From: Sphagnum compactum
Taxonomy: Eukaryota
Direction of reading: 5' to 3'
NCBI GenBank assembly: GCA_965153455.1
Contig: OZ234494.1
Span: 8,432,001 to 8,496,000 of the forward strand
Length of the DNA: 64,000 nucleotides
In this document: in pieces, positions 3,583 to 55,819 of the stretch
How positions within the stretch are numbered: position 1 is the first letter of the stretch
How the letters are laid out: every line of letters begins with the position of its first letter
Program-made: the position numbers and the translations under genes
Notes under the pieces: generated by a model
Told to the model about the DNA's origin: nothing
What the model saw: the letters and a program-made list of their open reading frames with translations, nothing else
Databases searched by the model: none

Positions 3583-3938
3583 TATTGGATTTATGCAATC
3601 CCGAAACAAATAAGTAACAAACATTATGCTTTCAATAACTCGAACATGTCTTTAAAAGCTTTGCAACATGCAGGAATCATATGGTATCATAGCAGCATTA
3701 ACCAGCATATTCATTACAGAGAATACAAGCGTACAAAATCATCAGAACAACATTGTGAACCAGTGCTTAAAATATGTTCGTGTAAGAAACTAATAAGCTG
3801 GAAAATTAAAATTCAAAAACTATGAAACGTGAATATCACTATGTAGATTATATCACTGTGTAGATTATGTCCGATAGAATTACTAGAAAACTCACCATGC
3901 AAATTATCATGAATAAAGTTACTTCACATCTTCCAATA
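3583..3938 (-). repeat. Copia 5' LTR (356 bp), termini TATTGGA...TCCAATA
   Basis: Bounded by the PBS on one side and by the end of homology with the 3' LTR on the other. It has a 7-bp terminal inverted repeat. Confidence 0.82.
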
Positions 3939-4525
3939 TGGTGTTGTCCAATGCAACGTGGATGGCAATAGTGGTCATGCTTTGTGCAGTCTCACTCAAA
4001 TGCTACACAAAGGATTTCAATGGTACGGGGCGATTCACAGTGTTCTGTGTCATTGTGGCACAAATGGCAATGGTTGAATATGTACTACCTCTCAAAACTA
4101 CTACTCACAGATTGTGATCAGGGTAGTGGTAGCTGAAAATGCCTCTTTTGCTATTTTTCGCATCTTTCACCTATTCTGTCTCCTAATCTTGGTGCCTTGC
4201 ACCAACAACACACCCATTCCCATTGATGATACCCAGGAAAAACCTTTTTCAGATTATGAACCTCTGGCTGGAAAACAAGAGGTTTGCCCAGAGCGCAAGA
4301 GCAATATCATTTCCTTTTTGTTGTTTGACTGGATGACCCCATTGATGAGATTAGGCTATAAGAGGCTATTGAGGACAAGGATATTTGGCAGCTTGATACT
4401 TGGGATAAAACAGGAATTCTTTACTCAAATTTTCAACAATACTGGCATGAATAACAGACAAGACCTAACCCATGGCTCCTATGTGCTTTGACCATAAGCT
4501 TGGGTGCTCAGTTTTGGCTAGGTTT
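3939..4525 (+). pseudogene. ABC transporter C family (MRP1/2-like, ABCC) fragment covering the TMD0 end and L0 linker; frameshifted, no visible introns
   Basis: Across frameshifts it reads DYEPLAGKQEVCPERKSNIISFLLFDWMTPLMRLGYKR...KDIWQLDTWDKT..LYSNFQQYW...PWLLCAL...SLGAQFWLG. This matches the plant ABCC1/2 pattern CPER.ANIFS..FFSWM.PLM..GYKRPL..KDVW.LDTWD. Confidence 0.85.
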
Positions 4526-7500: not shown

Positions 7501-8139
7501 ATTAAGGATTAGGGATTTGCCAATGAGCACTTCTACACAGTTGATGTTGCCACAACTAGAGGAACCATTCAGATGGCTTGCAACCATCAATTGACAGCCA
7601 CAACACTTCTACAGTAGGGAGTTCATGGCTATGCCTACATGTACGCACTCCATTATAGTACTTCTACAATAGGGGTTGATGGCCATGTGCCATGTACCCA
7701 CACCATTGTAAGTCTCCTTGCTCACCACAGAGCTCCTCAAGTACACCATCAACTGCCCTCTTCACTCCAAGGGTTGATGCAAGGTAGTTGAAGGATTTTC
7801 TCTGCTTGAATTTGGTTCTTGAAGAGAGTGGGCAACATTTGAAGATGGAATTTCTTTTTATGGGAGTGGGAAGTGGAGCTAGTTGCCATCGCTTTGCCCC
7901 CAAATTTCCAAACGGCTCACCATATAGTCGCTAATTGAAGAGCACAGTAGCCATGTCATTCACCCAGAAAAAATCAAAATAAAACATCAAGATTCTGCAC
8001 TACTCCCAAAAATACTGGAGCCATCCCATGTTGATGGTTTTCCAAAAAGAGAAGCCTTGTTCTGAATTGCTAAAAGCTTCAAACAGTAGAATAAAGGTGT
8101 GCAAAGCAAATCAGAGCTGTGGGGTACAAGCAGGAAAGA

Positions 8140-11100
8140 TCAAAATTTGATGGACTTCATGCTAAGTAATATTGAATTGCAACAGTCCTTGATACCAACT
8201 AGACTCTCTCGCTGGCTCCTCACAATACCACTCACTAACACCTCACGATCCCACATCAGTGGTGATGTCATCACTGTCCTATCTATACCATTAGCCAAAG
8301 CACTGAGTACATGCCCAGGTCCATGGGCCTCATCAGTCTCCACACATGAAAGCAGTGCAGCAACTTGACCCTTCTCTGGTCTGTCAAGGTATGCAGTCAC
8401 TAGTGAGTGACACTTCTCCAATTGAGAGCAAAAAGAGATTATAGCACCATGAAGTGCCTCAATTACATGGATCAAATCAAAATCAATGTGCTGCTCGGGT
8501 TGCTTCTTCTTCTTGCTCACAGGCTGCAGCCGCTTGGCCCATACTTGTAAGCACAACCCAAACCAAGCAAACACCTCACTGCTCAGCTTCACCAGTTTAG
8601 ATAGTGCCATATTTGGTGCAAGTACAGCTGTGCTCACAGTCCAGGCAGTGCCTACTTCATCAAGGGCAGCCTCCAGAAGTTTGTTAACTACTGCTAGTGC
8701 ATCAGAAAATCCAGTCTCCAAAGAGTGAGATGCAGGTGGCAGCCTTAAAGGTAGCTGTGTTGCTGTCCAGAAGATAGCTAGTGTGAGAATATCCCCTGTT
8801 TCCACATGCCACTCATTCTCCTGCAATGTTGTTTACAATATTCAAAACTTACTGTTCAAAAGCACATCTTTACCCAGAGAGAAACAAAATGCACATCAGC
8901 TTTAACACTACATAGATCAAGAACATCATCATACAATCTGCACTAAAATGGGCTGTCAAGAGCATATGACCTTGAGATTCAGTGAGGCTGCCCTGTTGGA
9001 GAGCCAGTTGCCAATATTCTCTTCAAATATTCCAAGAGATTTCATGTAGTTTCCAAGGAGCTGCTTCAACTCCCTAAGCACGACATGGTCAGCTTCTCTA
9101 CCAGGGGTGACAACTGTGATTGCAAGCTGCAGGAGCCTGGGAAGAAGACACCTCACCTTGAGTGCCTTCTTCCATCGAACCTCTCGCCTCAGTTGATCTT
9201 CCTGCACATAAACACAGTGCATTCAAGCATGAACTAATCTGTAACTGAATCATGGATCATCATTGAGAATATGGAGTACATTGAGAAATTCACATGTCCA
9301 CCTGACACATTCCTCCATCCATGTCTATATTGATCCATCTGTTTCAAAAGTTGGAACTCAGGAGATGCCAAATACCTCACTTCCTTCATGCCTTTGGTCT
9401 CCATCTTCACTGAAAGTGTTTGATGAGCCTGGATTAGCACCAACCACCAGGAGAGTATTTTCAGAACCCATGATAATGTACTACCGAGTCTTTTCAGTTG
9501 AGGAAGTTGAGGAAGCAATGGGGCACCTGTCAAGAGACATTCATCTGGAGCAGGAGACCACCAAGGTCGTGTTTGCAAATCCTCATTGAATGACACAGCC
9601 CCAAGTTGGGTGTCAGTTACCCACTCCAGAGCAACCTGTCCCCCTTTCACACTTGATAGGGCACTCTGAAAGCCAAAGCCCCATTTTAAGTAAGAAAACA
9701 AAGCACTTGCTGCCAGTTGCCCTGAAAGAGATAACTAGAACAACAAGAGATTGAAAAAGTTCCACTGCTCCTAAACAAGAGGCAGCTAATCAAGTTTGGC
9801 ATGTCATATGTGCTGTGACTCCACAAAAGTAAACAAACTGAAATTACTGCTCACTGGATGTCACTTGTAGTGGGTACAAAGGTAGTGAACAAGATCATAC
9901 CTCAAACTCCTCAAGTTTGTTAGCCTTCCGTTTCAGAGACAACATTATGGACTCAATCCGCACCACCAGATGTTGAAAAGACCTCTCCAGCCGTCCCTTG
10001 AAAGCCACAAACTCCAAGACCTGCCATCACAGGAGTCCATGCACATCCTATCAGACACCATTTGCAAGCCCTGAAACTGACAACTGTCCCCGAGTGTGCA
10101 GCTAAGCCAGCTCTGATCAGAACCATATTCAGAACCCATCTTGTCAGTTCCTCAGACTGTCTCCCAGTAATGACTAACTTCATGAGGACTAATGTACACC
10201 CATGAAGAAGAGAGCCCTACTTTTGAATAGGTGTTGTGGCGATAAGCAAGGATGATAAGGTCAGCAGCTTCTCGCTGATAGTCCCCATGAAACTTGGAGA
10301 TTTCTTGCAACATATTGTCAAGATTGTCCCAATCCATTGATGCAACCAAGCCTGGAAACATGTGGTGTGACATTGACTCCAAAAGAATGTATTTTACATC
10401 CACGCTCCTATACCTGTGTCCTCATGCACAATAAACCTTCTCAGAAGAAAAGCCAGCACCCAACTGCTTTGAACAACAAAATACTGCAAGACTCTTGACA
10501 ACCAAGCCTTATTAAAGGAAACCTGAAAGAGTTTCAAACAGAGCATGAAATAAAGAGTTTTCTGAATGTTACCAAGATATTCATGACATCAATAAGGTAG
10601 ACAAGGTAAGAATCTGTCTGCTTGGAGATTCACCTGTCCCATGCAGGCTTGAATGCTGACAAAAACAGGTAAAGGTTGACAAGCAGGAGCTTGTATTGTG
10701 CATTATATCTGCAAAACATAAACAATGACCATTAGCTTCCATATAGCACCAAACCAAGACAGATCCGATGTCTAAGGGACCTACTACCAGCAGAAGCTTT
10801 CTTCCTGAATTCCAGAAGAAATACGTGACTAGGAGATCCATACTTGACTCTCAGTCATACTATCAATCTCAGATAACATGTGGACCTTCGCATTGCTAGC
10901 CCAAACTCAAGCACCAAAATTGCCTCCAAGATGTAGCCAAGTTGTTGTGTCCGCAAGTAAAGCTGCATGATGTCACCAATCATTTCAGAAGCTTAAAGTG
11001 GTACTCAAATGACTAAAATGCATGACAGAAATGAGACTCATACAAGATTTGTACAATCATACATGCAGGTCTTCTGATCATGCAATACCTGTATCAAAAG

Positions 11101-14100
11101 ATCAGTGATCAAGGTCAAAAGCTCTTCCCCTGGCATATTCTCTTGAGGGTCAAGATCCACAGAAAGCTGAATACTCCTTAAATAGAGGTGCATAATTTCT
11201 ACAGCTTGTGCCACAACATCTGCATGAAACCCCCAAAACCTTGTTAACCCCAAAACCCTGCAGACCCCTTATCAGCCTTGCCTGCCATGGCACCTGCTTC
11301 TGTGTCAACAGGCACATCAATTCCCTGCTTGAAAAGATAAGGCAGACCAAAGATGAGCCCAGAGAAGCAAGTGAAAGAGAGGAAGAGTACCAGAATCTGT
11401 GACATGTGCCTGAACACCCAGCTGATATTCCACCTGAAATGCACTGACTCGATACCTCAAAGCTTTCACAGGGGAGATAGCAGGTGTGAGTTCCAGGCAT
11501 GCTTGATGCAATGCCTTCGCCAACCAAAGTTTTTGTGCTCCATGAATGTGTTTTAAAAACTCCTTCACATCTGATGCAAAACTCACCATAAACCCAAACC
11601 TGCCCTGACACAGGTACTCTACATTAGTGTGTGTCTTCAAGAACTTGTCTGATGGACCTCAGTTGCCCCAACTGAAGGCTGCAGATCAGTGCTGTCACCA
11701 ACAAGTGTTGAGTATTCAAATTCATGTCTGGCTCTGGTTCACAAGCATAGACCTTTACTCTAGAACTAGTAACAATAACTTGCATCAAACCCAGTATTTT
11801 CTTCAGAGGCTGGTATCCAGTGCCAATTAGCAATAGACTTGCAGAGAGGTGTTACCTTTCAAAATATCTCAAAATGGATTGAGCCAAATTGACTGAAGCT
11901 GAATCAGGGCTTTCTTGCTGGTCTTTTGCATTGTGTGCTTTCCAAAGCAAGCGCCTCTTCTCAACCTCCAAAACAGCTAAGAAAGGTCCTCGGCGCAGAT
12001 CAGGTGTATCCATAGCTTGCAGTTCAAGTATAAATGCATTCACTTGTTCAAATTTTACACCCATCTGCCAGTGCCACCAATACAAGCAGCATTATGACTC
12101 AGATACTCCGCAGTTGCAGGAGCACGCCACCGCACAGCTGGATAAACTTCATTTGTATTTATTTCTTTTTCCATTTAGTATGCAGCCCACAGGGTCCATT
12201 ACAAACACCAATATAAGGACCATCATGCAATGTTGATAAGGAACATGTTTTGATTCCATATGACGTCATGCACCAGATAGAAGGGAAACCTACCTCTTCC
12301 TCTGAAAATTGTGAAAAGGGATGGTCCTGCGAATTCTCTGCTACTACTGGTAAAGTCAACACAGCATCAATGTACATCTGGAAAGCTGCCCAGTCATCTG
12401 AGCTGCACACATACCACATCCCCATCCTCTCTTTACAGAGCGAACACACCAGCTGATGGATGACAATATAAAAGCCCACTACCAGTTTGTACAAGGCAAG
12501 ATGTATTGTGAAGAGAAGTAGAAGGCAACAATATAATGCTCATTCCCTTAACAGTATTCTTGTACACACAGAAGAATGAATTCTCTGTCATATTATCTCC
12601 AGGGGAGTTGTACCCTTAAGGGTGGCCTTAAGACTTGTGACAGAAGCATTCATGGCAACAGTTTAAAACTCTCACAGAATTGCAACATGGCTTGATAACA
12701 GAGAACTTGGAGCACAGTATCAAGCACTGTCACATGGCCAAATTTCACAAGCATGATAGTAAGACACCCAAGGGAAGGAACACAGGCCTCAATCTCAGTA
12801 TTTCTTGGAAAACTTCAACTGCATGCTCATACTGATGTGAATGCATCAGCAGCTCTCCCTGTCAACATGCCATATCCCACACACACCCACACCCCGCCCC
12901 CACCAAACCAACAAACCCACCTCCAGACTTATCATCTCCATTCACAAATGCAACACAGATATGTTGTGTACCACAGATGCATCAAAACCTGCAGTCCACA
13001 ATTTCCATGACCAAACTATGTTTACATAAAACTTTGCCTATCCTTCTTTCAAGCAAATCCCATTAACTTCTTCAAAAAGACCAAGCCCTGTCCAGTTCTC
13101 ACTGCACATTAAATTAATCAAGTGGTGAAAGACTGGGATACCTGCAACCGCAGACGGTCTGTAGTAATAGTGAAGAGATTGCCCAGTGGGCCCTGCAGCA
13201 CTGCTAGTGCTGTATCATGCTTTTGTTGTTGCTGTAGCACCTTCAGGTACACAAGTAGCCCTGAAATCCACCACCCAATAGCAGTAAAAGCAAGAATTCA
13301 ATGAATATACTGCACTATTTGTAACCTTGCACCCGATTCATGCGCATTCCATCTCAAGGTCCCTAATTGAAAGGTCTCAGGTGTACATCAACAACAAACA
13401 AGTGGAACACACAATGCGTACCTTCAAGCTCCTGCAAACTATGAGACTCCACATGCTTCTTCAGTAAAGCTTCTGCAAGTGGCAATAATTTGGCATTGCC
13501 ATCACTAACCTGCACACAAAATGTTCTCAGAAATTGATACAATGACAATGTCCAATTCTCCAACTGGTTTAATTACCATGCTTAACTACTACCTGGTACA
13601 CCAAGGCACTACTTGCATAGGGTTTCCAGGGTCTAACAAATAGTGCAACCTTTCAAAGGATTTGGGCAGCTTGAGAAAGCCAGATGCTCTAATGCTGCAC
13701 TACATTATGGAGCCCTACACCATTCACTTCATATCTTCAAGCTCTTGTACACTGTGTGTGGACAATTTGAGATAAGAAAACAGTAGGGGTGGTCCTTTCC
13801 ACCTTGACTCCTACTTAAGTGCTCAATTGCATGAACTGATTATGACCAGAGAAGGAAAGGGAGAGAAATTAAACCTGCAGCATGATGCTGCAGATGGCCC
13901 ACAGAAGAAATCTCTCCTCACCCAGCAACTTGTACAACTTCATGGCAGTCTGTCAAGGGCAAAGACACAAAATTATGTGTTGATATCTAAAAACATTCAT
14001 GTTGCAAGGACAGTCACAGGCATCAGTTTGATCCTTCTCAGAAAGTATCCTCAACAAAGAAGTGCTAAGTATGACAAGCACAGTCCTGATAAAGGCACTC

Positions 14101-32493: not shown

Positions 32494-32740
32494 TGATGTG
32501 TCTTTTCTATTTATGACATTTTGATGTGAAGTATGCATGATTTACATTGTAACTAAATCCATGCAATTATCATGATGTAATTTTGCATAAAATTATGTGA
32601 TTCTTGTGTGTTAAACATGAACATTCACATATGTCATTCAAAAACAATGTTTCATCCATTTGAATATTTAATTATTGAATATGTACAAATATTGTTCATA
32701 TGAACCATAACATGGAATTCATGTGAGTTTTGTATGAACC

Positions 32741-33081
32741 TGTTATGGACCGACTACAAACAAGTGGAGACTTACAAGACAAGACAAGCTTTATTGACCC
32801 ATCAACCGGTGTTGATCTGTTGAAGGGTTGTTCCCCAGACTATCTCCTTTTATAACCCTGAGCCATACTAGTCCCAAAATATCCTAGGCCATGATATTGC
32901 CAAAAGTATCCCAAAATATCCTAGGCCATGATATTGCCAAAAGTATCCCAAAATATCCTAGGCCATGATATTGCCAAAAGTATCCCAAAATATCCTAGGA
33001 CATGACATTGCCAAAAGTATCCCAAAATATCCTAGGACATGACATTGCCAAAAGTATCCCAAAATATCCTAGGCCATGACA
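32741..33081 (-). repeat. Gypsy 3' LTR (341 bp; 5 full plus 1 partial 37-bp units)
   Basis: Near-identical to 38468-38734. Unit cccaaaatatcctaggccatgatattgccaaaagtat starts at 32873. Confidence 0.97.
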
Positions 33082-36000
33082 TTATCCTCTCCTCAAGCGA
33101 CATCTTCTAGATGGAGCCGGTTTGTTAGGATATCGTTGGTGAAACCGATTAACTAAGTCTTGGGCATGAACTAGGTTTCCAGCAGGCTCCCAAGTAGCTT
33201 CAGAAGGAGGATAACCTCGCCAAAAGACAAGGTTCAGGAGCTTTCCACGAATCTTCTTGGAGTCCAAGACCTCCTGAACTTCAAACTCTTCTTGGCCTTC
33301 AATTTCGAGTGGAGCTGGGGGTTCTTGATGACGTTCTGGGATCGGGTTTTCATGATAGGGCTCAAGCAGGGAGACATGGAAAACATTGTGGATTTTGAAC
33401 TGGGGTGGAAGCTCCAACTGGCAAGCCACTAGACCAACCAATTTGGCGATTTTGAAAGGTCCGAGGCACTTGTAATCCAACTTGGCACATGGGCGAGTGG
33501 TAGTAATGTTCTTTCTAAGAAGCCAAGCCTTGTCTCCAACCTTGAAGTTTGGATGGTCCTTGCGTCGGCGGTCTGCTTGCTTCTTTTGCCACTCCTGTGT
33601 TAGCTTGAGTTCTGCCATAAGGTTCTGTTGAACCTGTCCAAGCCTCGTGGCCCTTTCTTCAGCCGAGGGGTTTACGGAGTCTCCAGGAATTTCAAGGCTG
33701 AACCTGGGATGAAAACCGTAATTGGCAAAGAATGGACTGATCCCGGTCGATGCATGTGTTGTGTTATTATAAACAAACTCTGCTTCAGATAGTAGGTCCA
33801 ACCAGTCATCCTGTTGGTAGTTCACAGTGCAGTGAAGGTATTGCTCGAGTGTCTGGTTTGTCCGTTCGGTTTGTCCATCTGTCTCAGGGTGGAAAGCTGA
33901 AGATAGCCAAATGTCAACTCCAAGAAGCTCGAATAGACGATGCCAGAACTTGGATGCAAACTAAGGACCTCTGTCGGACACAATTTCCTCGGGGAGTCCA
34001 TGCAGTCGGACGATCCCGTCCAGAATTAACTAAGCTGTCTCTTCTGTCGTGATGACTTGGAACAAGGGGTGAAATGGGCCATTTTGGTGAGTCGATCGAC
34101 CACAACCAGTATTGAATTCTTGGTTCTGACAGTAGGGAGGTCCGTGATGAAGTCCATTGCAATAGATCCCCAAGGTCGGCTAGGAATCGACAGAGGCTGT
34201 AGGAGTCCAAACGGGCGATGCCTGGGAGCCTTGGATCAAGCACATGTATCACAAGACTTGACATACTCCCGTAGCATCTTGTTCATTTTGGGCGACCAAT
34301 AAGTCCTTGACACTAGTTCGTGAGTCCGTGCCATTCCAAAGTGACCCGCCAGGGTGTTGTCGTGGCATTCTCTCAGGATTTTTAGGCGTATAGGTCCTTC
34401 GGGTATATAAATCAGGTTATTTCGAAGGAGAAGTCCGTCTTGCTGCTCAAACTGATCCAAGTCATCACGATTTGGGTTCCTTGGTCGTTCCTGGAGTTCC
34501 TTCTTGATGTTGGTAGCCCAGGTGTCTTCCTCAGTTGCCATCTTGATGTCCCTGACAAGGTATGAGTCTGGGAGGGTGCTGATTGTTGCTGCAACTCGAA
34601 ATTGCTCGGGGTTGAGTAAAGTCTGGTTCTGCTGGCCGTAGGCCTCATCCCCCGCTCGAAGTTCATATTCTGAACGACGAGATAGCGCGTCAACTTTCCC
34701 TTGCTGGGTGCCGGGTTGATACTGAATCTCAAAGTCGAAATCAGCTAGGAAGATAGACCAGCGTGCCTGGCGACGATTTAAGGTCCGAGTAGTTGTGAAA
34801 TAAAGGAGATTCTTGTGATCTGTCAGAACTTGGACTCGATGTTGAGCTCCGGCAAGATACGGTCTCCATTGCTCGAATGCCGTGATGATTGCCAGGAGTT
34901 CCTTATCGTAGACCTGGTAGTTGATTTCGGCACTGGTTAACTTCCGTGAATAGAAAACAACTGGATGCAGCAACCCATCTATTCCAAATTGAGATAGAAT
35001 AGCTCCCAAGGCAAAATCTGAAGCGTCCGTTTCCACAATGAATGGCTTGGCAGGATCGGGATGTATCAGGATGGGTGCTGAGGTGAATGCCATCTTGAGA
35101 GTATCAAAAGCAACCTGGGCCGTTGGATTCCACGAGAAGGGCTTGTCTTTGCAAGTCAGGGTTATTAACGGTGTTGTGATCTTGGAGTAGCCTTTGATAA
35201 ACCAACGATAGAAGTTAGCAAACCCTAGGAAGCGTTGAACGTCCTTGACCGAGGATGGAGTAGCCCAACATTGGATGGTCTCGACCTTTGACTTGTCCAT
35301 GAAAATGCCATCTGGAGAGATCATGTAGCCGAGGAACGCCACTGAAGATTTGTCGAATTCACATTTTTCCAACTTGGCGTATAAGCCATGTTCCCGGAGC
35401 GTCGCAAGCACCAATCGTACATGTTTGTCGTGGGTTTCCTGGTCCTTGGAAAAGATTAAAATGTCATCCAAATAGACCACGACAAATTCGTCCATGTAAT
35501 CCCGGAAGATATCATTCATCAAATGCTAAAAGACTGCGGGTGCATTGGTGAGGCCGAAAGGCATGACCGTGTATTCGAAGTGGCCATAGCGTGTGCGGAA
35601 AGCTGTCTTCCATTCATCACCGGGGCGAATCCTGAGTAAGTTGTAGGCTCCACGGAGGTCAAGCTTGGTGAAAAGATCTTCCCGGTACGTAGTCGATCTA
35701 GGAGACCTGAAATCAAGGGCAAGAGATATCGATTCTTTTTGGTTATCTTGTTGAGTCCACGATAATCCACACAGAGTCAAAGGGAGCCATCCTTCTTCTT
35801 GACAAACAAAATTGGGGCGCCGGCTGGAGACTTGGAATGCTGAATGAACCCCTTGGCAAGATTTTCAGTAAGGTAATCACGCAGGGCTTGGAGTTCCGGT
35901 TCCGATAGGCCATAGATAGAACCAAAGGGTGGTGAGTGTCCTTCTTCTAGATCAATCGGGCAGTCATATGGACTATGGGCGGGAAGCTGATCAGCATTAA

Positions 36001-36841
36001 TCTTTTCAAAAACATCAACAAAGTCCTTGTACTTCTCGGGAAGTTTGACAGGTGTTGGTTCTGATTGGGGGTTTGTGGTGTTGGCTGGGTTGACATGGAT
36101 GGCGAAAACTTGAAGATTCTTAGCAGCCCGATAGAAAAGGACAGCTCTATCAATGAAGATCTGGACAGGGTTGGTTTTCTGGGCAGGATTCTTGACAAGA
36201 TTCTTGACAGGACAAGGTTTAGTTCTGACCAACCGGGGGTTCTTGACTGCAGGATTTGACATAACAGACTTGATAAAATTGGAATTGGTTTCGACCCTTT
36301 TTAGGTTCTCGACCACAGGGTTCTTGGCAGGACTGGACAAAGTGTTTTTCTGAGCGTGGGGTTCTTGAGAGGTGCACCGTTGTGCGCTGAAGGTGAGGGT
36401 TCTAGATCGCCAATCAATGATAGGGTTGTGTGCTTCTAGCCAAGGCAGACCAAGGATTCTGGGATGGTGAGGGGTGGAAATGATGTTGAGAACAATCTTC
36501 TCCGTGTGCTTGCCGATACAGACTTCTAGAGGGGTTGTCTCGTGTGTGATTGCACCAGAAGCAATGATTCTCCCATCAATAACCTCTACCGGAACAGGGG
36601 TTGACTTCTTGACCACATGGATGTTGTGTTGGACGACAAATGTTTGGTCGATGAAAGAAAAGGTGGCGCCGGAGTCCACCAAAGCTGACACTTGTGGTAT
36701 GTCTTCTGGAATACGAATGATGTCCACATACTGAGTGAAACTGGGACTGGGACCAACAGCGGAACAGGAGTCTTTGCAAAGGTGGTGTTGGGTGAGATCC
36801 AGTCGCACGGCTCCTACTGTGACTGGATGTTCTTGTTTTCC
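33082..36841 (-). pseudogene. Gypsy pol (protease, RT, RNase H, integrase, chromodomain), disrupted
   Basis: Motifs [76 protein letters not shown] and chromodomain FEVQEVLD...LVFWRGYPPSEATWEP. Nonsense codons near 35777, 35526 and 34236 and in the integrase, and a frameshift near 35670. Confidence 0.93.
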
Positions 36842-37803
36842 AACTCCTGGGGAGTTTCCACAGCTTGTACTTGAAGTTTGACAAGCTTTTGAGGGCACTG
36901 ACGAGCTATATGCCCAGGGTTGCCACAGTAAAGACATAGATTGTTTGTCCTTCGGCGAAGTTTCTCGGCTTCTGTCAAAGATTTAAACTTAGCTGTGTCG
37001 ATCTGCATCGGAGCAGGTCCAAAAGAGGCAGGTCGGGCAACTGCTGTTGTTTGGGGAACTAAGGGGAGCGTAGTAGGCCGACTGTTCCAAAGCTGGGCGT
37101 TGGAGGTGACTTTCTTTTCCTGGCGACGTTCGAACAGACGATTATCGCACCGAATTGCCTGGGTGATGGCTTCACTGAAGGAAGAAGGGTCTGCGAGTGT
37201 CAACAAAAGATCTTGAACATCATCACGAAGCCCACAGCGAAACTGATCAATCAAGGCAGCTTCTCCCCAATTGACGTCGGAGGTAAGCTGCCTGAATTCT
37301 GAGGCGTAGACGATGGCCGAACGTGTCCCTTGCTGGAGGCGACGCAGCTTGTTGGCTGAAGTCCTGGCCTTGTCACTGTCCCCAAATACTGCTTCAAATT
37401 CCGCCATAAAGGCGTTGAAATCTTGTAGGAGAGGGGATGATGTTTCTAGGATGGGAGCAAACCATGCTGCAGCTACCCCAGTGAGTAGGGTTCCAACGAA
37501 TCCTACACGGGTGGTGTCATCAAAATAACGACGGGGGTGTAGTTGCATGATCAGGCGTACCTGGCTGACAAAGCCTCGAAATTTGAGGCGCGTTCCATCA
37601 AACTTTTCTGGCAGACTGATCTTGGGCTCTTGGGCGGCCATTGCAAGAGCAGGAAATACTGGGGCAAGAGGTGGTGGCTGATTCTGTAGGCAGGTCACCG
37701 AGTCTCTAAGCACGACATTTTCTTGTTGAAGGTGCTGAAGGGCGGCGAGGATTTGAGTGAGATCGATGTTTGATTCTGAGTTGTCCATGGTGGTAGTTCT
37801 CAC
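36814..37803 (-). CDS. Gypsy Gag (capsid plus CCHC zinc knuckle), intact ORF
   Basis: Motifs PEKFDG, LRRLQQG...YASEFR, FRCGL and PMQID, with knuckle CLYCGNPGHIARQC. The ATG is probably at 37788. Confidence 0.9.
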   Translation of the reverse strand: MRTTTMDNSESNIDLTQILAALQHLQQENVVLRDSVTCLQNQPPPLAPVFPALAMAAQEPKISLPEKFDGTRLKFRGFVSQVRLIMQLHPRRYFDDTTRVGFVGTLLTGVAAAWFAPILETSSPLLQDFNAFMAEFEAVFGDSDKARTSANKLRRLQQGTRSAIVYASEFRQLTSDVNWGEAALIDQFRCGLRDDVQDLLLTLADPSSFSEAITQAIRCDNRLFERRQEKKVTSNAQLWNSRPTTLPLVPQTTAVARPASFGPAPMQIDTAKFKSLTEAEKLRRRTNNLCLYCGNPGHIARQCPQKLVKLQVQAVETPQELENKNIQSQ

Positions 37804-37828
37804 ACTTTTGCGCTTTCAATCTTCAAAC

Positions 37829-38290
37829 TTGAAACTTCAGATGCTTGGATCTCTCTCAATACAAGTCCAAATGACATGAAATTTTTCTCACACATATATT
37901 CCTATATGATCTATAAGATCACAAAGTTACAGACCCAAAAAAAACTTAAACAAAGGAGATATGACCAAAAAACCAGATCTGCACTTAAAACTTCAGATGC
38001 TTGGATCTCTCTCAATACAAGTCCAAATGACATGAAATTTCTCTCACACATATATTCCTATATGATCTATAAGATCACAAAGTTACAGACCCAAAAAAGC
38101 TTAAACAAAGGAGATATGACCAAAAAACCAGATCTGCAGTTGAAACTTCAGATGCTTGGATCTCTCTCAATACAAGTCCAAAAGACATGAAATTTCTCTC
38201 ACACACATATTCCTATATGATCTATAAGATCACAAAGTTACAGACCCAAAAAAGCTTAAACAAAGGAGATATGACCAAAAAACCAGATCT
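37829..38290. repeat. ~155-bp tandem repeat x3 in the Gypsy 5' leader
   Basis: aaacttcagatgcttggatctctctcaatacaag recurs at 37832, 37988 and 38143. Confidence 0.95.
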
Positions 38291-38467
38291 AGCACAGAGT
38301 TTTCAAAAAGCTCTTAACTCTCACAAAACATATTCTTTTCTTTTGAAACTTTGAGAGTAGAAGCGTCCTATAGTCTTCTATAACCTTTCCAAGTTTCACT
38401 CCAAGATACCTCTAGCTACTTACTGAAACAACAAAACAAACAAACAAGAAGAAGGAGCAGATCAAAC

Positions 38468-38734
38468 TGTTATGGACCGACTACAAACAAGTGGAGAATT
38501 ACAAGACAAGACAAGCTTTATTGACCCATCAACTGGTGTTGATCTGCTGAAGGGTTGTTCCCCAGACTATCTCCTTTTATAACCCTGAGCCATACTAGTC
38601 CCAAAATATCCTAAGCCATGATATTGCCAAAAGTATCCCAAAATATCCTAGGCCATGATATTGCCAAAAGTATCCCAAAATATCCTAGGACATGACATTG
38701 CCAAAAGTATCCCAAAATATCCTAGGCCATGACA
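38468..38734 (-). repeat. Gypsy 5' LTR (267 bp; 3 full plus 1 partial 37-bp units), with TATAAAA at 38581-38575
   Basis: About 4 substitutions relative to the 3' LTR, plus a 74-bp repeat-number difference. Confidence 0.97.
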
Positions 38735-47600: not shown

Positions 47601-50600
47601 CTCAAGTCGCCCTGATCCATCTTCCTCATGAATAGGAAAGTCCTCACTTTGGCCTCCCTAAATGTGAGGAGCTTAGGGAGGAGCTCTCCTAAAAAAAAGG
47701 AGATCAGATCTTGGGTCTCCTCCCTAACCACCCCCTTCAAATTATACTCCTTCAGGAACACCACTTGGGGGAAACAGACTGCATCAATTCAACGAAAGGA
47801 ATCGAGTTCTGGAATGGCGCATCATTCTGGAACCAAAGCATACTAATGGGACGCTCACAAAGATTGAACGCGGGCACCTCCATATTAGTAGATAGATCTT
47901 TCGCCCCTCTAATTATCGCCAACGGCATCTTTCTAGAAGGAAGAGCTCAATTCATAACTCTCCAGATCCCAGACAACGGGAACCTGACAATCATCAACGT
48001 GTACGCCGCTCGTTCCTCAAATGAAAGAGTGTCGATGTGGAAGCGGCTGAGTGAAGCCAACCTCGATGCCGCCCACATCATCTTGGGCAACGACTTCAAC
48101 CACTTTGAAAAGACAAATCGCAGAGGAATAGCTGGAAAACGTCGAATGCATAGGAGGGAAGCGACCGCATGGCACCACATGACGCTTTAATACGGATTAA
48201 CGGACGCCTGGAAACTGGATAATTTTCGAAAAATGTCCACAAAGGAGTTCACCTTCGACAACGGTAGATTCGGCGCCCGCTCGGCGATCTCGCGTATAAA
48301 CAAGTTCCTCGTCTCATAGGACCTGGACACGAAAGGAGGGAGAATTGAGGCGGCCACTTCGGTCCACAAACTCTCGAACCACTCTCCCTTGGTTCTAACC
48401 ATCTGGGGATAGTTGGGCCCCCCCTACAAACCAAATCACTACTTTGACTCCTCCCTTCTAATAGATGAAAAAGGCAGAGCTGTAATGCTTCAAGCTTGGG
48501 ACGGGGAGTTGCCCAAGCCCACAATCGACTCAGAATGGGCCCCCTGACTAGAGGCCGTCACCAAAAGAACAATGTTTTGTAACACGCAACTAGCAAAAGA
48601 GAGGAATTGATTAAAAGGAGCGCAAGTTAGAAAAGAAAAAGTCTGAGCACACGCAAAGAAAATTCAGCTAGCTGAGAAACAGCTACAACTGGACCCAACG
48701 AATGAACAAATTCGAGACATCATGTCCGAGTCGCGAGGGAAGCTCGCGGAGTTTTTCCAAGCCTTAGTCGAGCACCACAGCCACCATTCGGTCACAAAAT
48801 TGCTCAGGTATGGAGATACTTGCTCCCAAAAAAATTATTACTTTCCTCCGATCGGAAAATAAAGACGCTTCTGAAGGAGCTGGAGGTAAACGGGAGAACA
48901 ATTTCTAGCCAAAGGGATTTCTCCCACTACATCACTAAATTCTATGCAAACTTCTACGCCTCAAAACCGCATGCCTCAGGCACCTCAGAAGCTCAAAAGA
49001 GATGCTAGGAGAGTGTCCCCGTTCGGGTCACGGAGGCAATGAACGCCGCCATGACCCGGACCTTGACACTTGAGGAGGTCGCTGAGGCCATTGCATCTCT
49101 TCCCAAAGGCAAGGCCCTGGACACGATGGATTGCCAACCGAATTCTTCCAAGAATATGCGAAAGAGGTTGCCCCCACGTTTCTCCTAACTTTCAAGGCAA
49201 TGTTATCCTTGGGGCTAACCTCGGAATACATTAACAAGGGAATGATCACCTTGATTCTGAAGTCAGGAGATCATTCCAAACTAGGGACCTGCCGTCCAAT
49301 CACCCTCCTTGGGAACATTTATAAAATCCTAGCTAAAACTTTAGCGAAAAGGATCCAGCCTCACCTTCCTCTCGTGATCAGACCAAACCGAACCGGATTT
49401 GTGGAAGGAAAGAGCATTGTAGACAACAATTTTTTAGCCCAAGAAGCCCTGGATTGGGTAGTTGAGAGCGGCCAGGATCTCGTCGTCGTCCTCCTAAACT
49501 TTGAAAAAACATTCGACAGAATAAAATGGGGATTCCTTTTCCCAGCTCTATCCAGGCTGGGCTTCAGTCCCAAGTGGATCAAATGGGTCTCCTCCCTCTA
49601 TTGGCTAGCGTCCTCCTTTATCAAAGTCAATGGTGAACCTGGGGAGGATTTCAGGCCAGCCAAGTCGGTTAGGCAAGGCTGCCTACTGGCCCCGTACCTG
49701 TTCATTCTCGCAACTGACATCCTAAGCCACATGCTGGACGACCCCAAACATGAGGTAGAAGGGCTATCCCTCCCCAAAGGGGGTTGTGTTCGAGACCAGA
49801 CTTTCGCGGACAACACCGCCCTGTATCTTAGGGGCACTCCCAGCAACCTGAGCAAAGCCAGGTCAGTCTTGGATTTATTCTGCCGCGCTTCTAGTGCAAA
49901 AGTTAACTGGGGAAAGTCGCCGGCAATATGGGCTAGCAAAGAAAAGAGAAAATGGAAATGGGGGCAAGAGGTCGAGCTCAGATGGATACCCGAAGGCCAA
50001 GGTGTTCGATACTTAGGCATCCAAATAGGCTTCCGGCTTCTCACGAAGGCCAATTTTGACAAACTCATGCACTCCCTAAAAGGGAAAATGATTGTTTGGG
50101 GCAATTGCAACCTCTCCCTCGTCGGCAGAATTCTGGTTGCCAACCAGGTCCTACTCTCCTCCATGTGGTACTTGGTGGCTTGTTGGAATCCCAACCCTAG
50201 AGTGTGCAACCAGGTCAGGGGGGTGGTTCGCAACTTCATTTGGGGGGTCAAAGCTTCCAACACCCGAGCCAAGGTTAAGTGGGACTCCCTCACTTTCCCC
50301 TTGTCAAGCGGCGGGCTGGGTATCATAGATCCCAAAGCCCAATCCGAAGCCCTGCTCGCTAAATTCCTAATGAGAGGGTTATCCCCACGGGGAGAACCCT
50401 GGAAAGAAATATGGAGACACCAAGCGGACTAGATCCAACTCCCGATGCACGGCAAAGGGCCAAAGAACCCAGACATAAATTGGCTCTTCGCCGTCCCCAA
50501 ATTAAAAAAAACGACCTCCTCTTTTTGGAAAAGTATTTTCAGCTCCTGGTTAAACATCAAGGCCGACCTTGTGAAAATTGAACCGTCATCCTGCGCGGAG

Positions 50601-51708
50601 GTGCTCAGGTAGCCCATCTTCAGCAATCCTCTCATCACCAACACGGCTGGCCACCCCCTTGGGGTAAGCGGCCTCAATGAAGGGAACACCATCGCCAAAG
50701 CGGGCTGCACCAAGATAAAAGATCTCTGGGACCCGGTAGAAAGGGACTGGAAGAGCCTCCCAGCCCTCCGGATGAACTTCGACATCATCAACTGGATGAA
50801 CAAGGGAATCATTATAGATAGCATTCCCTGGAACCCTGCAATAGACCCTAGTGGCTCCGGATAGGGGATTGGATAAGCAGTAGGGCCCCAGGCAACAGTC
50901 CCCCTTTCCTTGGGTGTACTATGTAACTGGGTCCACTCCCAACACAGTACAAGCCATCGAATTTCAAAGGGTCTCCCCCAGCGGCCTTATCAGAGCGGTG
51001 AGCTCCCAAGAAGTGGTACTCTCCCCGAAGGGCTACCACCTAATCAAGGTCCTCACACAAGAAAGACACGGAGCTCCCCTCAGGGTTGCCAGAGATCTGC
51101 TTGCGCCCCCCAAACACCCCCCCCTTTTATGGATCTTCGAATTCGGCTTCATTGAAGGCCTCCCCTGGGACCTCGGGAAGTGGCACTGGCAGGTAGCCCC
51201 CCAAACGGATACTTGGCCAAGTGGGGCTACAGGAACACAAGGAATCCCACGCATATCCCCTACATCCGCTCCTTCATCCAGCAACTAAACCTCCAAAATT
51301 CCACTAACTCTCAAATCATTGCTAGAATCTGGCACAACTCCCGCCCCCGTAAAGTTGGTACCCTCATCTGGCTCACCCTGAACCATGGTCTCCCGGTCGA
51401 CACCTGGCTTCAATGCATGGGGATTCCCCCCACGTGCAAGGTCTGTGTGAGGATTTATTGCACACCTTCACCACTAAGATATGCACTCACAATAAAAGAC
51501 CCGGTTGGAAGTGGAACTACTATGTAGTGTAGTCTAACAAGTAAGGTGGTTCGAAGTAAGTAATGAAATTCACTAAAAAAAATCTAATGCGTTGTGTCCA
51601 AATCTCATGAGTTTTTATTTTATTTTATGTCTTTGACCAAAGTTAAGCCCCGAAACTAAAAACCATTTGCTTTCATTGAGGAAAACAAAACAAACATCTC
51701 AACCTCTT

Positions 51709-52273
51709 CTACTTCCAACACCTGCAACTCCCTCACAGCAAAACCGATGATGCTGAATTTTTGGGAGGAGCTTCAACACCTTCCAAACTAAAATTGATCT
51801 AATTTTGACACAAATCCAACGGTGGATTTAAGAGAAACAATTAACTAAACCAAACGTCCAGAGGCTTCACTACGATTCTTTCATGAACCCCTCTTCAACA
51901 CCCTCTACTTCCAACACCTGCAACTCCCTCACAGCAAAACCGATGATGTTGAATTTTTGGGAGGAGCTTCTACACCTTCCAAACTAAAACTGATTTAATT
52001 TTGACACAAATCCAATGGTGGATTTGAGAGAAACAATTAACTAAACCAAAAGTCCAGAGGCTTCACTACGATTCTTTCATGAACCCCTCTTCAACACCCT
52101 CTACTTCCAACACCTGCAACTCCCTCACTGCAAAACCGATGATGTTGAATTTTTGGGAGGAGCTTTTACACCTTTCAAACTAAAACTGATTTAATTTTGA
52201 CGCAAATCCAACGGTGGATTTCAGAGAAACAATTAATTAAATCAAAAGTCCAGAGGCTTCATTACGATTCTTT
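51709..52273. repeat. 196-bp tandem repeat x~3 inside the solo LTR
   Basis: ctacttccaacacctgcaactccctcac recurs at 51709, 51905 and 52101. Confidence 0.95.
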
Positions 52274-53166
52274 GCTACACACAACTCCATTCCATGCTTC
52301 ATTTTTTCATAACTTTTTCATGAACACTTCCACACACAAGAACTAACAACCTCTCTCACACTTCATTCTCCTCTTTTTTCTCTTTTTTTCCATACACACC
52401 ATGCCTTCTCCTTTGGCAAGCCTCCATGGCCTTCCTTGAGCTTCTTTTCCTTGTCCAATCAAGCTTTGAAATCCTTTTGCACCAATCAATGGCCTCCTCA
52501 TCATTCAAGGGCCAATGAAAATTTGAGAATGAATGGCCATCCAATTGAAATTAGGATGAGAATCCATGGGCCCAATGAAACTTAAGAGATATTCCATCCT
52601 CCAATCAAAGAAGATGACAATCCTCATGACGAATGGGATTGGAGGATCCAACCTCCCCCTTATCTTGGATATCTTGATGAAGTTTCTTGAGCTTGATCCT
52701 TATCTTTTCCGTCCGTTGACCCTCACATCCTACTTCTTCATCCTAATTACTTCAAGTAACTAACTACTAGGATAAATTATCGGTAGTAACAAGGAAGAGT
52801 CCTTGAGTTCTTACTTGACTAATTCAATGGTTAAAGTAACATTTCCGTGTAACATTTACTCCTTGATATTCCCTACCTATTTACTTTACTATGCACTAAT
52901 TAACTATGTAGTACATAGTAAATTGGAATTACAATTTGCATCACAAAAGAAAAACTCTCACATACTTCTAGATCCACCGTTGAATTTAGGGTTTGATGAA
53001 TCCCTTAGATCTAGGGTGTTCGAGTTTTGATGAAGTTTCGCCGTCATTCCCACGCCTTACGCCTACCCTAATTTGTTAAATAAAAAGGCCTCGACCCTTT
53101 TTGAACGCAAGTACCACCTTGTTCATACTACCTTTTTGGTTTTTGTTGATGCAGGCGCAACTAGCC

Positions 53167-53580
53167 ATGGCGGACGATGATGCTACGCCTTCAAATCCTT
53201 CGGTCGCACTTGTACAAGAAGAAGAGCTTGAAGAAGCACCGCTCGACTTGGATGTTTCTCAACGGCCGCGCAAAGAAGAACCGCCTAGGAAAGTGGTGCG
53301 CACTGGAGTTGCTCGTTCGGTATGGGATCGTCGACTGTCTCCTAACCCACATGCTTTAGCCATTTATCTAAAGTTTGTTCCTGCTCGTGGAGCCGCGCCA
53401 GAAAGGTTTGAAGAGTGCCAGTGCGAAGATGATGATGTCCGTCTCCATTGTCGAACGTGGGTTCCCGGTGACGGCCATTATCGTTGGCTACGAGGCCCGA
53501 TCAACCCACTTCCCCTGGAGCATCGAGCCGAGTACCTCGCTCGCACCATCCGTCGCATCCTAGAATTTTTACAACTGTGA
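53167..53580 (+). CDS. Hypothetical 137-aa protein encoded inside the solo LTR; no family recognised
   Basis: Uninterrupted GC/CpG-rich ORF with a GCCATGGCG start context. A U-rich tract and TGCAG acceptor (AG 53153-54) lie just upstream, and AATAAA is at 53695-53700. Confidence 0.5.
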   Translation: MADDDATPSNPSVALVQEEELEEAPLDLDVSQRPRKEEPPRKVVRTGVARSVWDRRLSPNPHALAIYLKFVPARGAAPERFEECQCEDDDVRLHCRTWVPGDGHYRWLRGPINPLPLEHRAEYLARTIRRILEFLQL

Positions 53581-55819
53581 TCTATCCTTTTAGTCAGTTA
53601 TTCAGTTGTAATTCACTTGAGGCTACTCAGGCGGAACTGTTGCTACTTACGTTTGATTTTGATTCTATTTCAAAGTCTGATAGAAGTGAAACTAAATAAA
53701 GATGTATTAGGATTACATCCTAAAAATCCTACAAGTACATCATTAGTGCTTGAAGATCATTCTACAGACTAACTCAACCTTGTCATGCGAAATATTGTTA
53801 ATTATGGGCTTGTATTCCCTATATATCAATAAATCACATCTAATTCTACATCCCCTTCCCCTTCTCTACAAACTAAAAAGGATAATGTACTTTTAAAGGT
53901 TTACTAGGTCCTAAACTAATTAAGTGTTACATCCATTGAAATAAAGAATTACTCTATGCCTAGAAATATCACAAAAACTAATTCAACTTTTAATAATCAC
54001 TACTTGAAGGTTTATAAGCATTCAAATCATTAGTACTAAGGAAATTTAAGGAACTAAAGCTTAATTAATTGTTGAGCTATAATCCATGGCTCACAGTCTG
54101 CGCCAACGGGGCCCCCGAATCTCCTCAGCACTGCCTCCTCGAATGCCCTCACACCAAGCAGGCCTAGGAGGCCTTCAAGTGCATCTGGCTAAAATGGGGG
54201 GCGCCGAATGACGTCACCCCCACCTGGCTGTTCATCCTACTCGGGGAATCCGTCTTCGAAAGAAAGGACGACCCCCCCAGCACTCAAAGGTACCACGCAT
54301 GGGGCTTCTCTTACATTGGACAATCGCTTGACATTCTCCGTAGCTTCATTCTCTATTTTTTCTGGTCTGAAAGGTGCCGGAAGCACTTCGGCGACTAGTA
54401 CTCCTCTAGGAAAGTTCTTCAGCAAGCTTGGGTGGCCACGGTCGAGGTTGGGATGGCCACTTGGAAGGCCATCAACTCGCTCTGATCCAGCCGGGAACCT
54501 AGCTAGGATTGATCAGGCCTTTAGGGCAGAGTGGTGTCATTTGAACATCTTTGGGGAGGATTGCGCTGCCATTGTGTGGCGCTTCCTGCCCCCTTTGTAC
54601 TTCCTGAATTTCTTTAATGATTGATGGGGCTACTGCCCCCTTCCCCCCTCTTTGGAGTTTCCTACATGGTCTCCAAATGGCCCCTATGTTCACCTCATTT
54701 TCTCCTTCAAGTCTTTGGGAAGCCATGTGGTGTTGGGGCCCTAAATGGTATGACCTCTTTTCCAACGAACACCCCTTGGAAAAGGATCATCTTTCCATCC
54801 TTTTTATTTCCGTAACTCTTTTTCACAAGTAGGCTTTTGTAGTCCCTTGAAATGGGATGTTCTTTTCCCAAATCAAGCACATCATCTCACATTAACATTT
54901 GTTCGCGTGAGGGATCCTCTTTAAGTGTTTGTTTATACTAGTTCTAAGGGTTGCTACCATTGTAACAATTGGAGGTATTTTTGCAGTAATTGTTATCACA
55001 TATGTGATAAGTGGTTCTTCTATTACTTGACATCATCTAGTTTGTTAGATTATGCGACCTCTTCCTAAATGTGTAATTGTTCCAAAAGTTCGTCAATATT
55101 ATCTTGGTAATGATTAGTTTACTCTATGTGCCATTTTTGCATGCCTTTTAATGCCTTTCAAAATACCCTTGATAATTCTATTGACTCCCACCTTGCTAAC
55201 AGGTCATATAATAAGGCCTTTTGTTGCATTTTGAATCACAATTGCCTCCCAATTGGTAGATCAATCTTCCTTGCTTTTGTTGATGTCGAAAGTTGCATGT
55301 GCAGCTTTAAAAGGTTTTATTTGAATGTCGCTTATGTTATAGCTTAATCAGTTGTATCATCATGATGTTGCTTTGTTGCGCTTGTTTTTCTTTTGCTTGA
55401 GCCTTCTTTCTTTTGTTTCAAGTTCATTGAATTCATTAGTTAAGAGGGATTTTTCTTTTTACACCAAAAGGATTTGTTCTTTTGGAAGTTTAATTACAAT
55501 CAATTTTTTTAGTTTTCCTCATGTGTAAACTATGGTTATTAAATAAATTTTCATGTCCATATTAGCTTTTTAATGGTCTATTGGTGATAAAAATTTAACT
55601 TTGTTAGTTCTTTATTCAACTTTTCACTTTTTTCCTTAGTTAAATTACTAGCCAATGTATCAATGTTTCTTGAGTATGCCAGAACATGACATATATTACT
55701 TCACATATTATTACATGTTTGTGATTATTTAAGTCACATATTACTACATGAGTATGTAGTAAAATTAGATTTGTAAATAGGTAGGTAGGTAGGTAAGTAG
55801 GATCCTATAACATTATTTA

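Follow-up and report, generated by a model that had tools for sequence, protein, structure and literature searches.

What is a small, intact, gene-like open reading frame (ORF) doing inside an insertion that looks like the solitary long terminal repeat (LTR) of a retrotransposon? The question is raised by a 64-kb stretch of the Sphagnum compactum genome (assembly GCA_965153455.1, contig OZ234494.1, positions 8,432,001 to 8,496,000 of the forward strand), which we call the window and whose own numbering is used throughout. Here a 2,650-bp insert on the forward strand (51446-54095) carries a 137-codon ORF (53167-53580, forward strand, with its ATG at 53167 and its stop codon at 53578-53580) that starts 1,721 bases inside the unit. 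We propose that the insert is probably the solo LTR of a high-copy retroelement of peat mosses (Sphagnum type) whose LTR encodes a hitherto undescribed accessory protein.

The insert has the coordinates and motifs that a preliminary description of the locus had reported. It begins with TGTGAG (51446-51451), ends with CTCACA (54090-54095) and lies between two perfect copies of a 5-bp target-site duplication (TSD), GTCTG, at 51441-51445 and 54096-54100. Its boundaries are confirmed independently in three ways. In 79 related loci the outermost bases are identical to those of the window unit and similarity starts and stops exactly there, and most related copies share the TG start (38 5' ends examined) and the CA end (59 3' ends examined). 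Among 24 distinct complete copies the 5-bp duplication is perfect in 15, carries one mismatch in five and is missing in four, which leaves 20 of the 24 with no or one mismatch. Finally, the flanks read through into one another, for the insert interrupts the zinc-knuckle tail of ORF2 of a forward-strand long interspersed nuclear element (LINE; 49086-51445, RVT_1 at E=9e-25) and splits its C-terminal Cys/His knuckle: the left flank reads ...WLQCMGIPPTCKV (...TCKV), the right flank (54096-54167, forward strand) supplies the remainder of the tail, VCANGAPESPQHCLLECPHTKQA, with its stop codon, and the two joined form one LINE ORF2 tail. An RNA contig from a paralogue of this LINE is missing the insert (joint 51442>54246). 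The inverted repeat at the unit ends measures 6 bp only, and a blastn search of the window returned no second copy of the unit. None of six scanned ORFs of the insert has a Pfam match, and on that ground the insert is without gag or pol, as had been described; its ends and its 5-bp duplication are those of an LTR.

Whether the reading frame is a gene is answered most directly by its relatives. The preliminary description had called it a gene-like orphan and had granted that, for so short a frame, chance could not be excluded; that reservation can be withdrawn, since 1,414 of 1,436 candidate proteins match the ORF at E<=0.01 (75-240 aa, the best 92% identical). The gene-like character itself has been borne out: the gene is conserved across the family, has deep moss relatives and, in its own frame alone, bears the trace of purifying selection between subfamilies. 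An exhaustive HMMER search (E<=1e-3) yields 140 cluster representatives, among them relatives at 30-47% identity that are mostly 125-180 aa long, with several longer, and several of the distant relatives end alike at the C-terminus, in ...FLxx. Among the named relatives, Sphagnum jensenii CAN5964115.1 is 80% identical; Physcomitrium patens contributes A9U498, A9U643 and A9U5N5; and in Ceratodon purpureus 138 members fall into a single cluster (90% identity or more), the listed gene models being on several chromosomes. The ORF is a genuine gene borne by the element, one of an unannotated family of 125-180 aa that is present in high copy in Sphagnum, Physcomitrium and Ceratodon. Some members (P0239, P0247, P0301 and P0318) are two-domain forms in which the whole unit is tandemly duplicated in one reading frame, and such a form is annotated in C. 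purpureus (KAG0576639.1) and in P. patens (A9U5N5). Scans of viral contigs and of genome contigs gave 27 and 20 pattern matches, none of which was confirmed. One 418-aa protein (P0315), taken by eye for a fusion of a protease/reverse transcriptase-like part with the domain, was rejected: Pfam returned nothing for it, and BLASTP against a chromovirus elsewhere in the window gave E=0.26 over 15 residues.

The window ORF is uninterrupted over its 137 codons, as had been noted, the start context GCCATGGCG is present around its ATG, and an in-frame ATG upstream, at 53149, would extend it to 143 codons. How such a frame fares from copy to copy was followed in the window and in 79 loci from short-read metagenomes. 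At least 602 stretches of metagenome contigs match, at least 523 were confirmed, and the 80 best tblastn matches, seeded on conserved peptides, were kept as the 79 loci. DNA matches to the ORF region are full-length and in the same place in the unit in 83 of 84 cases, the other being cut by a contig end; the presence of the ORF in most copies is a partly circular result, the loci having been found through the ORF. Among 79 unique copies the frame is open in 28 and broken in 51. The commonest break is CGA>TGA, and indels are rare, five of the 79 copies differing in length. Since the sample is biased to good protein matches, the true intact share must be lower than 28 of 79, and all four bystander copies, which had not been search targets, are broken.

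Selection was assessed in 75 in-register copies, with five length-variant copies excluded, against a null in which each change, of the same type and CpG context, is placed at random in the same copy. Changes private to single copies are neutral (37 synonymous, 118 non-synonymous and 10 stop, where 37.3, 120.5 and 7.2 are expected). A comparison of two subfamilies of 60 and 14 copies, one singleton cluster having been dropped, gives another picture for the near-fixed differences: nine are synonymous and six non-synonymous against an expectation of 3.9 and 11.1 (p=0.0055), and within codons 58-137 the counts are seven and two against 2.5 and 6.5 (p=0.0023). A McDonald-Kreitman-type table of fixed against private changes is significant as well (Fisher p=0.003). 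Variants shared by at least five copies are enriched in synonymous changes in the true frame (65 against 48.6 expected, p=0.007) and not in the two shifted frames (p=0.21 and 0.23). Nucleotide diversity over codons 58-137 amounts to 0.118, 0.069 and 0.179 at first, second and third codon positions (third > first > second), and codons 1-57 show little codon-position pattern. These data show a gene that is kept by purifying selection in the lineages that produce copies and that then decays neutrally in each inserted copy; both halves of this conclusion follow from the neutrality of private changes and the synonymous enrichment of subfamily differences. Transposon genes classically bear this mark: selection acts on them as long as the lineage replicates and no longer restrains their decay after insertion.

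The inserted copies decay mainly through C>T changes, CGA>TGA among them. A well-preserved neutral relic, the window copy owes its intact frame only to having so far escaped a hit. It differs by 6.8% from its nearest sampled relative and carries only one base unseen in other copies (Q18E); nothing marks its ORF as a gene maintained by the host, and it is no domesticated host gene. The idea that the gene survives in solo LTRs is therefore not sustained, given neutral private changes, 51 of 79 copies broken in a favourably biased sample, and four of four bystanders broken. The comparison of stop codons and of non-synonymous and synonymous change across copies that the preliminary description had proposed thus shows a frame broken in most copies, neutral private changes and purifying selection between subfamilies.

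The protein itself has three parts, an acidic N-terminus (aa 1-27, pI 4.05), an Arg-rich basic segment (aa 28-57, pI 11.6) and, C-terminally, a conserved domain that contains GHYRWLRGP and closes with a helix. The core that is conserved across the family consists of W53, L64, GHYRWLRGP (with H104 and W107 invariant) and the terminal TIRRILxFLxx helix, and a motif L-x-L-x-(L/V/S)-(S/T)-Q recurs through the family. The L-x-L-x-(L/V)-S-Q form of the protein resembles the EAR-type LxLxL repression motif. The acidic start and the basic patch had been described before and are both there; the Cys/His cluster named alongside them does not define the family, as Cys 84, 86 and 95 are missing from distant relatives. 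Database comparisons gave no assignment: Pfam has no match to the window protein at E<=10 and nothing significant for 12 relatives (best DUF1289, E=0.17), the best hits in PHROGs (E=0.04) and in a PDB profile search (retinol-binding proteins, E=0.41) are taken as chance, and the ESM Atlas clusters hold no usable match. AlphaFold2 reached a mean predicted local distance difference test score (pLDDT) of 51.6 for the whole protein (26 alignment rows) and of 57.3 for the domain at aa 52-137 (46 rows), the C-terminal helix alone (aa 117-134) attaining 70-81; both models are poor, which leaves the fold and any function unsupported by them. With low confidence, we suggest that the protein may be a nuclear accessory factor that helps the element and might modulate transcription or silencing of its own family, a guess prompted by the acidic tail, the EAR-like motif, the Arg-rich patch and a possibly beta-rich domain that would end in an amphipathic helix. 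The further suggestion in the preliminary description that it could act on the neighbouring 196-bp array is not supported.

The remainder of the unit holds sequence candidates for a U3-R-U5 layout, namely repeats, CCAAT boxes, a TATA-like box and AATAAA. Repeat detection places a forward-strand tandem array of 196-bp repeats, 2.9 copies with 95% matches, at 51708-52273; these are candidate U3 enhancer repeats, and their number varies between family members. Upstream of the ORF (52455-52605, forward strand) lies a candidate promoter or enhancer formed by CCAAT boxes at 52455, 52482, 52512, 52541, 52572 and 52601, spaced 27-31 nt apart, together with TGGGCC at 52567. The cluster and the TGGGCC site are as first reported, the boxes being six and not five, and no other 180-nt stretch of the window matches this count. 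A TATA-like TAAATAAAAAGG at 53077-53088 (forward strand), about 80 nt before the ATG, may serve as core promoter, and the 50-nt bin from 53046 that covers this region is 91% identical across copies. Beyond the ORF, the AATAAA expected about 115 nt past the stop is found at 53695-53700 on the forward strand, exactly 115 nt after it; it is a candidate poly(A) signal of an ORF transcript and could mark the border of R and U5. The contrast in composition that had been pointed out is also real, with GC content and CpG observed-to-expected ratio at 0.53 and 1.15 in the ORF, 0.38 and 0.46 in the LTR upstream and 0.31 and 0.25 downstream. Measured against the window copy, DNA identity of the other copies keeps a fairly even level across the unit (about 0.72-0.94 per 50 nt), so that at the DNA level the ORF is not markedly better conserved than its flanks, and conservation shows no drop at the AATAAA.

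A comparable layout occurs in a second repeat that is dissimilar in DNA, at 707-1600 of metagenome locus L004. It has CCAAT-rich repeats of 27 and 106 nt (at 745-985), a CTATAAAT box and a decayed ORF (1233-1598) that is 41% identical to the distant family members P0285 and P0205, the box lying about 95 nt upstream of the ATG of this homologous ORF. CCAAT repeats, TATA box and ORF follow one another in both repeats, which suggests a transcript of the repeat's own with the ORF as its first reading frame. On this model the family's 2.65-kb LTR would be a complete small transcription unit, made up of the 196-bp array, six CCAAT boxes, a TATA-like box, the 137-aa ORF and AATAAA, with the ORF in what we infer to be the transcribed (R) part. 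With the ORF in R, a short mRNA for it, polyadenylated and without splicing, could come from any LTR of the family, be it the 5' or 3' LTR of an element or a solo one.

RNA data bear on this model in part. Four RNA runs were aligned at 85% likeness. The preliminary description had proposed an intron from 52756 to 53155, and the motifs it relied on are present (donor CAA/GTAACT at 52753-52761, acceptor TGCAG at 53150-53154); no joint linking 52756 to 53155 occurs in the four runs, and contigs of X2 and X5 pass unspliced through the interval, so the intron is not supported. In the metatranscriptome X1, contig depth is highest over 52980-53700, at 160-450 over 52980-53591. It stands at 172-450 over 53388-53591 and then falls to 49, to 10 (53694-53795), to 1.6 and, beyond 53898, to zero. 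As this fall comes just past the AATAAA and the DNA beyond is equally conserved, it suggests a short, unspliced transcript over the ORF that ends near the AATAAA at 53695. Only X1 suggests such a discrete transcript, because X2 depth is concentrated on the 5' part and the array, and X5 covers the unit evenly in two contigs of about 960 nt that could be DNA or read-through. Polyadenylated raw reads (X24) cover the region of the 196-bp array (51654-52367) at a depth of 16-42, with the first mate on the forward strand only; this may point to independent transcription of the array, which would perhaps run antisense to the ORF, provided that the library was stranded in the usual way.

Is the unit, then, a solo LTR? 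We hold that it probably is, and a number of observations have to be set against this reading. A full-length parent was not found: same-locus duplicates aside, none of 59 3' flanks and none of 37 5' flanks share sequence running on from the element end, and at 29 of the 59 3' ends no paired copy appears although the flank extends for 8 kb or more, so that the paired parents which the preliminary description had hoped to meet among the related copies are missing from these metagenome loci. Two loci do contain two direct copies (L025 and L046), and these belong to different subfamilies with no gag or pol between them. As for the protein, the AlphaFold models are poor (51.6 and 57.3), the near-fixed differences that carry the selection result number only 15, and the bias of the sample to intact, protein-like copies could lower apparent dN. 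As for transcription, X1 consists of metatranscriptome contigs that possibly include DNA and were selected for containing words of the stretch; no RNA run contains half of the sampled words of the stretch, the 14 runs with any containing 7-14%; and in 12% of the polyA raw-read run, mean depth over the ORF does not exceed about 4 in any 102-nt bin, both strands summed. The missing parent is not proof of absence, because short-read assemblies break at young paired LTRs and many of the loci are short contigs inside the unit. Solo to full-length ratios are stated as high in P. patens, and long LTRs recombine readily (PMC7251063).

The two direct pairs were examined as candidate full-length elements and rejected. 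Between the L025 copies, which are of different subfamilies, no ORF reaches 90 aa; in L046 gag and pol are lacking between copies that again differ in subfamily. The complete copies at both loci have TSDs of their own. A search for further element ends by their terminal motifs added one 3'-end fragment (L025, at about 8208) and otherwise returned chance matches. L025 is a local pile-up, with three copies of the unit in 10 kb (3727-13366), two of which abut tail to tail, by their 3' ends, at 10933/10934. At L073, a copy with a perfect GAATG duplication (4317-10932) is 6,616 bp long; its extra length is about 4.2 kb of other DNA near unit position 160, probably a nested insertion.

The missing parent also feeds an alternative, namely that the unit is a whole mobile element, a one-gene, non-autonomous entity inserted singly by a retroelement-type integrase acting in trans, with its protein preserved by selection. 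All examined ends are solo, an internal region being shared by 0 of 59 3' and 0 of 37 5' flanks; 15 of the 24 complete copies have a perfect TSD of their own; and the ORF is under purifying selection between subfamilies although gag and pol are never linked to it. The TSDs do not discriminate, because solo LTRs that arise by recombination within an element retain theirs too. The solo ends are equally expected where short-read assemblies break at young, near-identical paired LTRs and where loci are short contigs inside the unit, and the ready recombination of long LTRs likewise counts against this alternative. The inverted end of only 6 bp and the lack of an internal pair of primer-binding site and polypurine tract recognisable by eye do not favour it, and we know of no mechanism that copies and inserts a single LTR-like unit. 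We consider it unlikely, even with the further point in its favour that unclassified repeats form the largest repeat class, 7.8%, in the Sphagnum genome according to the accessible part of PMC9946827.

A related and rather unlikely picture is that of an LTR-only parasite, a 2.65-kb one-gene unit that would spread with the integrase and reverse transcriptase of a gypsy partner while its protein recruits the machinery or shields the family from silencing. If true, it would be a new kind of non-autonomous retroelement with a new transposon-encoded protein family, and the protein would be moss-wide and conserved since before the split of Sphagnum and Bryopsida.

The ORF could instead be a captured host gene or its descendant, or belong to a moss host gene family that lies in repeats, its conservation then reflecting a host function. 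Relatives in three moss genera are indeed annotated as ordinary hypothetical genes, P0288 and P0255 come from contigs of 1-3 kb that are possibly transcripts, two-domain versions exist (P0239, P0247), and a GC- and CpG-rich ORF contrasts with its AT-rich LTR. The copies, however, decay neutrally, with 51 of 79 broken; the Ceratodon relative is itself dispersed, its 138-member cluster (90% identity or more) having gene models on many chromosomes; within the unit, the position of the ORF is constant in all 83 full-length DNA matches; and in the DNA-dissimilar L004 repeat it follows a comparable CCAAT/TATA region. A search of 422 candidates turned up no host protein of greater length or fused form, which is weak evidence in the same direction, and we regard a host origin of the conservation as improbable. 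It is scarcely credible that the frame stands open by chance, in a patch of the LTR rich in GC, and yields no protein: its shortness, the 51 of 79 broken copies, the lack of Pfam, PHROG, PDB or Atlas matches, the poor structure models and near silence in the polyA RNA-seq run would suit this view, but relatives at 30-47% identity retain length, frame and C-terminal end in three moss genera, shared and fixed differences are synonymous-enriched in the true frame only, and the C-terminal domain is most diverse at third and least diverse at second codon positions.

The insert stands in a window that is, as a whole, a patchwork of transposons. An apparently intact Ty3/gypsy chromovirus on the reverse strand (32734-38734) has gag, protease, reverse transcriptase-RNaseH, integrase and chromodomain, a short LTR pair (274 nt aligned at 97%, spaced 5,653 bp apart) and a 155-nt tandem array at 37779-38244; its DNA is unrelated to the 2.65-kb unit. 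Fragments of a Ty1/copia pol, also on the reverse strand (815-2994), give weak RVT_2, rve and SH3_retrovirus matches.

With a conserved gene inside the LTR-like unit, any copy is potentially an expression unit, a solo copy included. No annotation exists for the protein family, yet it is dispersed in large numbers in Sphagnum and Ceratodon, with several predicted copies in Physcomitrium, and Physcomitrium is a tractable model that offers a direct experimental handle on accessory proteins, whether in transcription, in silencing or in the hijacking of a partner. Some of the large share of repeats that is reported as unclassified in Sphagnum genomes may also be accounted for by this family. Should no paired parent exist, the locus would pose the new question of how an LTR-like unit multiplies.

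Several known systems invite comparison. VANC proteins are anti-silencing proteins of the VANDAL (Mutator) DNA transposons of Arabidopsis; like the moss protein, they are small transposon accessory proteins that could act on their own repeats, and the possible analogy is one of function only, as the transposon class differs and no sequence similarity was detected. Large retrotransposon derivatives (LARDs) and Sukkula-type elements of grasses have very long LTRs and are often met as solo LTRs. They share with the moss element an LTR of several kilobases, non-autonomy, abundant solo copies and the need for a partner's enzymes; LARDs, however, are described as non-coding and have a recognisable internal domain, whereas the moss LTR codes for a conserved protein and an internal domain was not found in 79 loci. 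In some animal retroviruses, too, genes lie in or overlap the LTR: sag of mouse mammary tumour virus (MMTV) lies in U3, and nef of the human and simian immunodeficiency viruses (HIV/SIV) overlaps U3. There, too, an accessory protein is encoded in LTR sequence and so duplicated at both ends of the element. The functions of the viral genes are known, and their mRNAs are spliced or start from internal promoters; the moss ORF has no sequence relation to them, no splice was seen for it in four RNA runs, and it apparently lies downstream of the CCAAT and TATA motifs of its LTR, which would put it in R rather than U3.

A DNA transposon of the GingerRoot or Ginger group was considered as well. GingerRoot is present in bryophytes, and Ginger elements share TG..CA ends with LTR elements; as far as the accessible part of that source goes, GingerRoot has a 6-bp TSD, mostly TA..TA ends, terminal inverted repeats of 100-150 bp and a DDE transposase (PMC6839031). 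The assignment was rejected, for the TSD of the moss unit measures 5 bp and its inverted end 6 bp, and a transposase is lacking, where those elements have 6-bp or 4-bp TSDs, long terminal inverted repeats and a transposase (PMC6839031, same part).

Full-text literature searches, whose coverage excludes subscription journals, found no description of an LTR-resident ORF in moss or other plant retrotransposons, and the accessible parts of a paper on transposable element transcription in P. patens and of the Sphagnum genome paper make no mention of such an ORF. The nearest plant counterparts are the additional ORFs (aORFs) of LTR retrotransposons such as Grande, RIRE2 and Retand and the env-like genes, which are likewise an extra gene in all or most copies of a family; in the accessible part of the source their function is given as unknown, they are conserved like element genes, have no relatives outside transposons, and a role in retrotransposition is only inferred (PMC7264820). 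The moss ORF differs from them in having no sequence similarity to any Pfam family. It also differs in position: aORFs are internal to the element, adjoining gag or placed after pol and before the 3' LTR, and the phrases "in the LTR" and "within the LTR" never occur in the text of that article (PMC7264820), whereas the moss ORF lies inside the LTR-like unit and is for that reason present in solo copies too. On our reading it is an accessory gene that an LTR element carries within its LTR, where the accessory genes of plant elements have been described only in the internal region.

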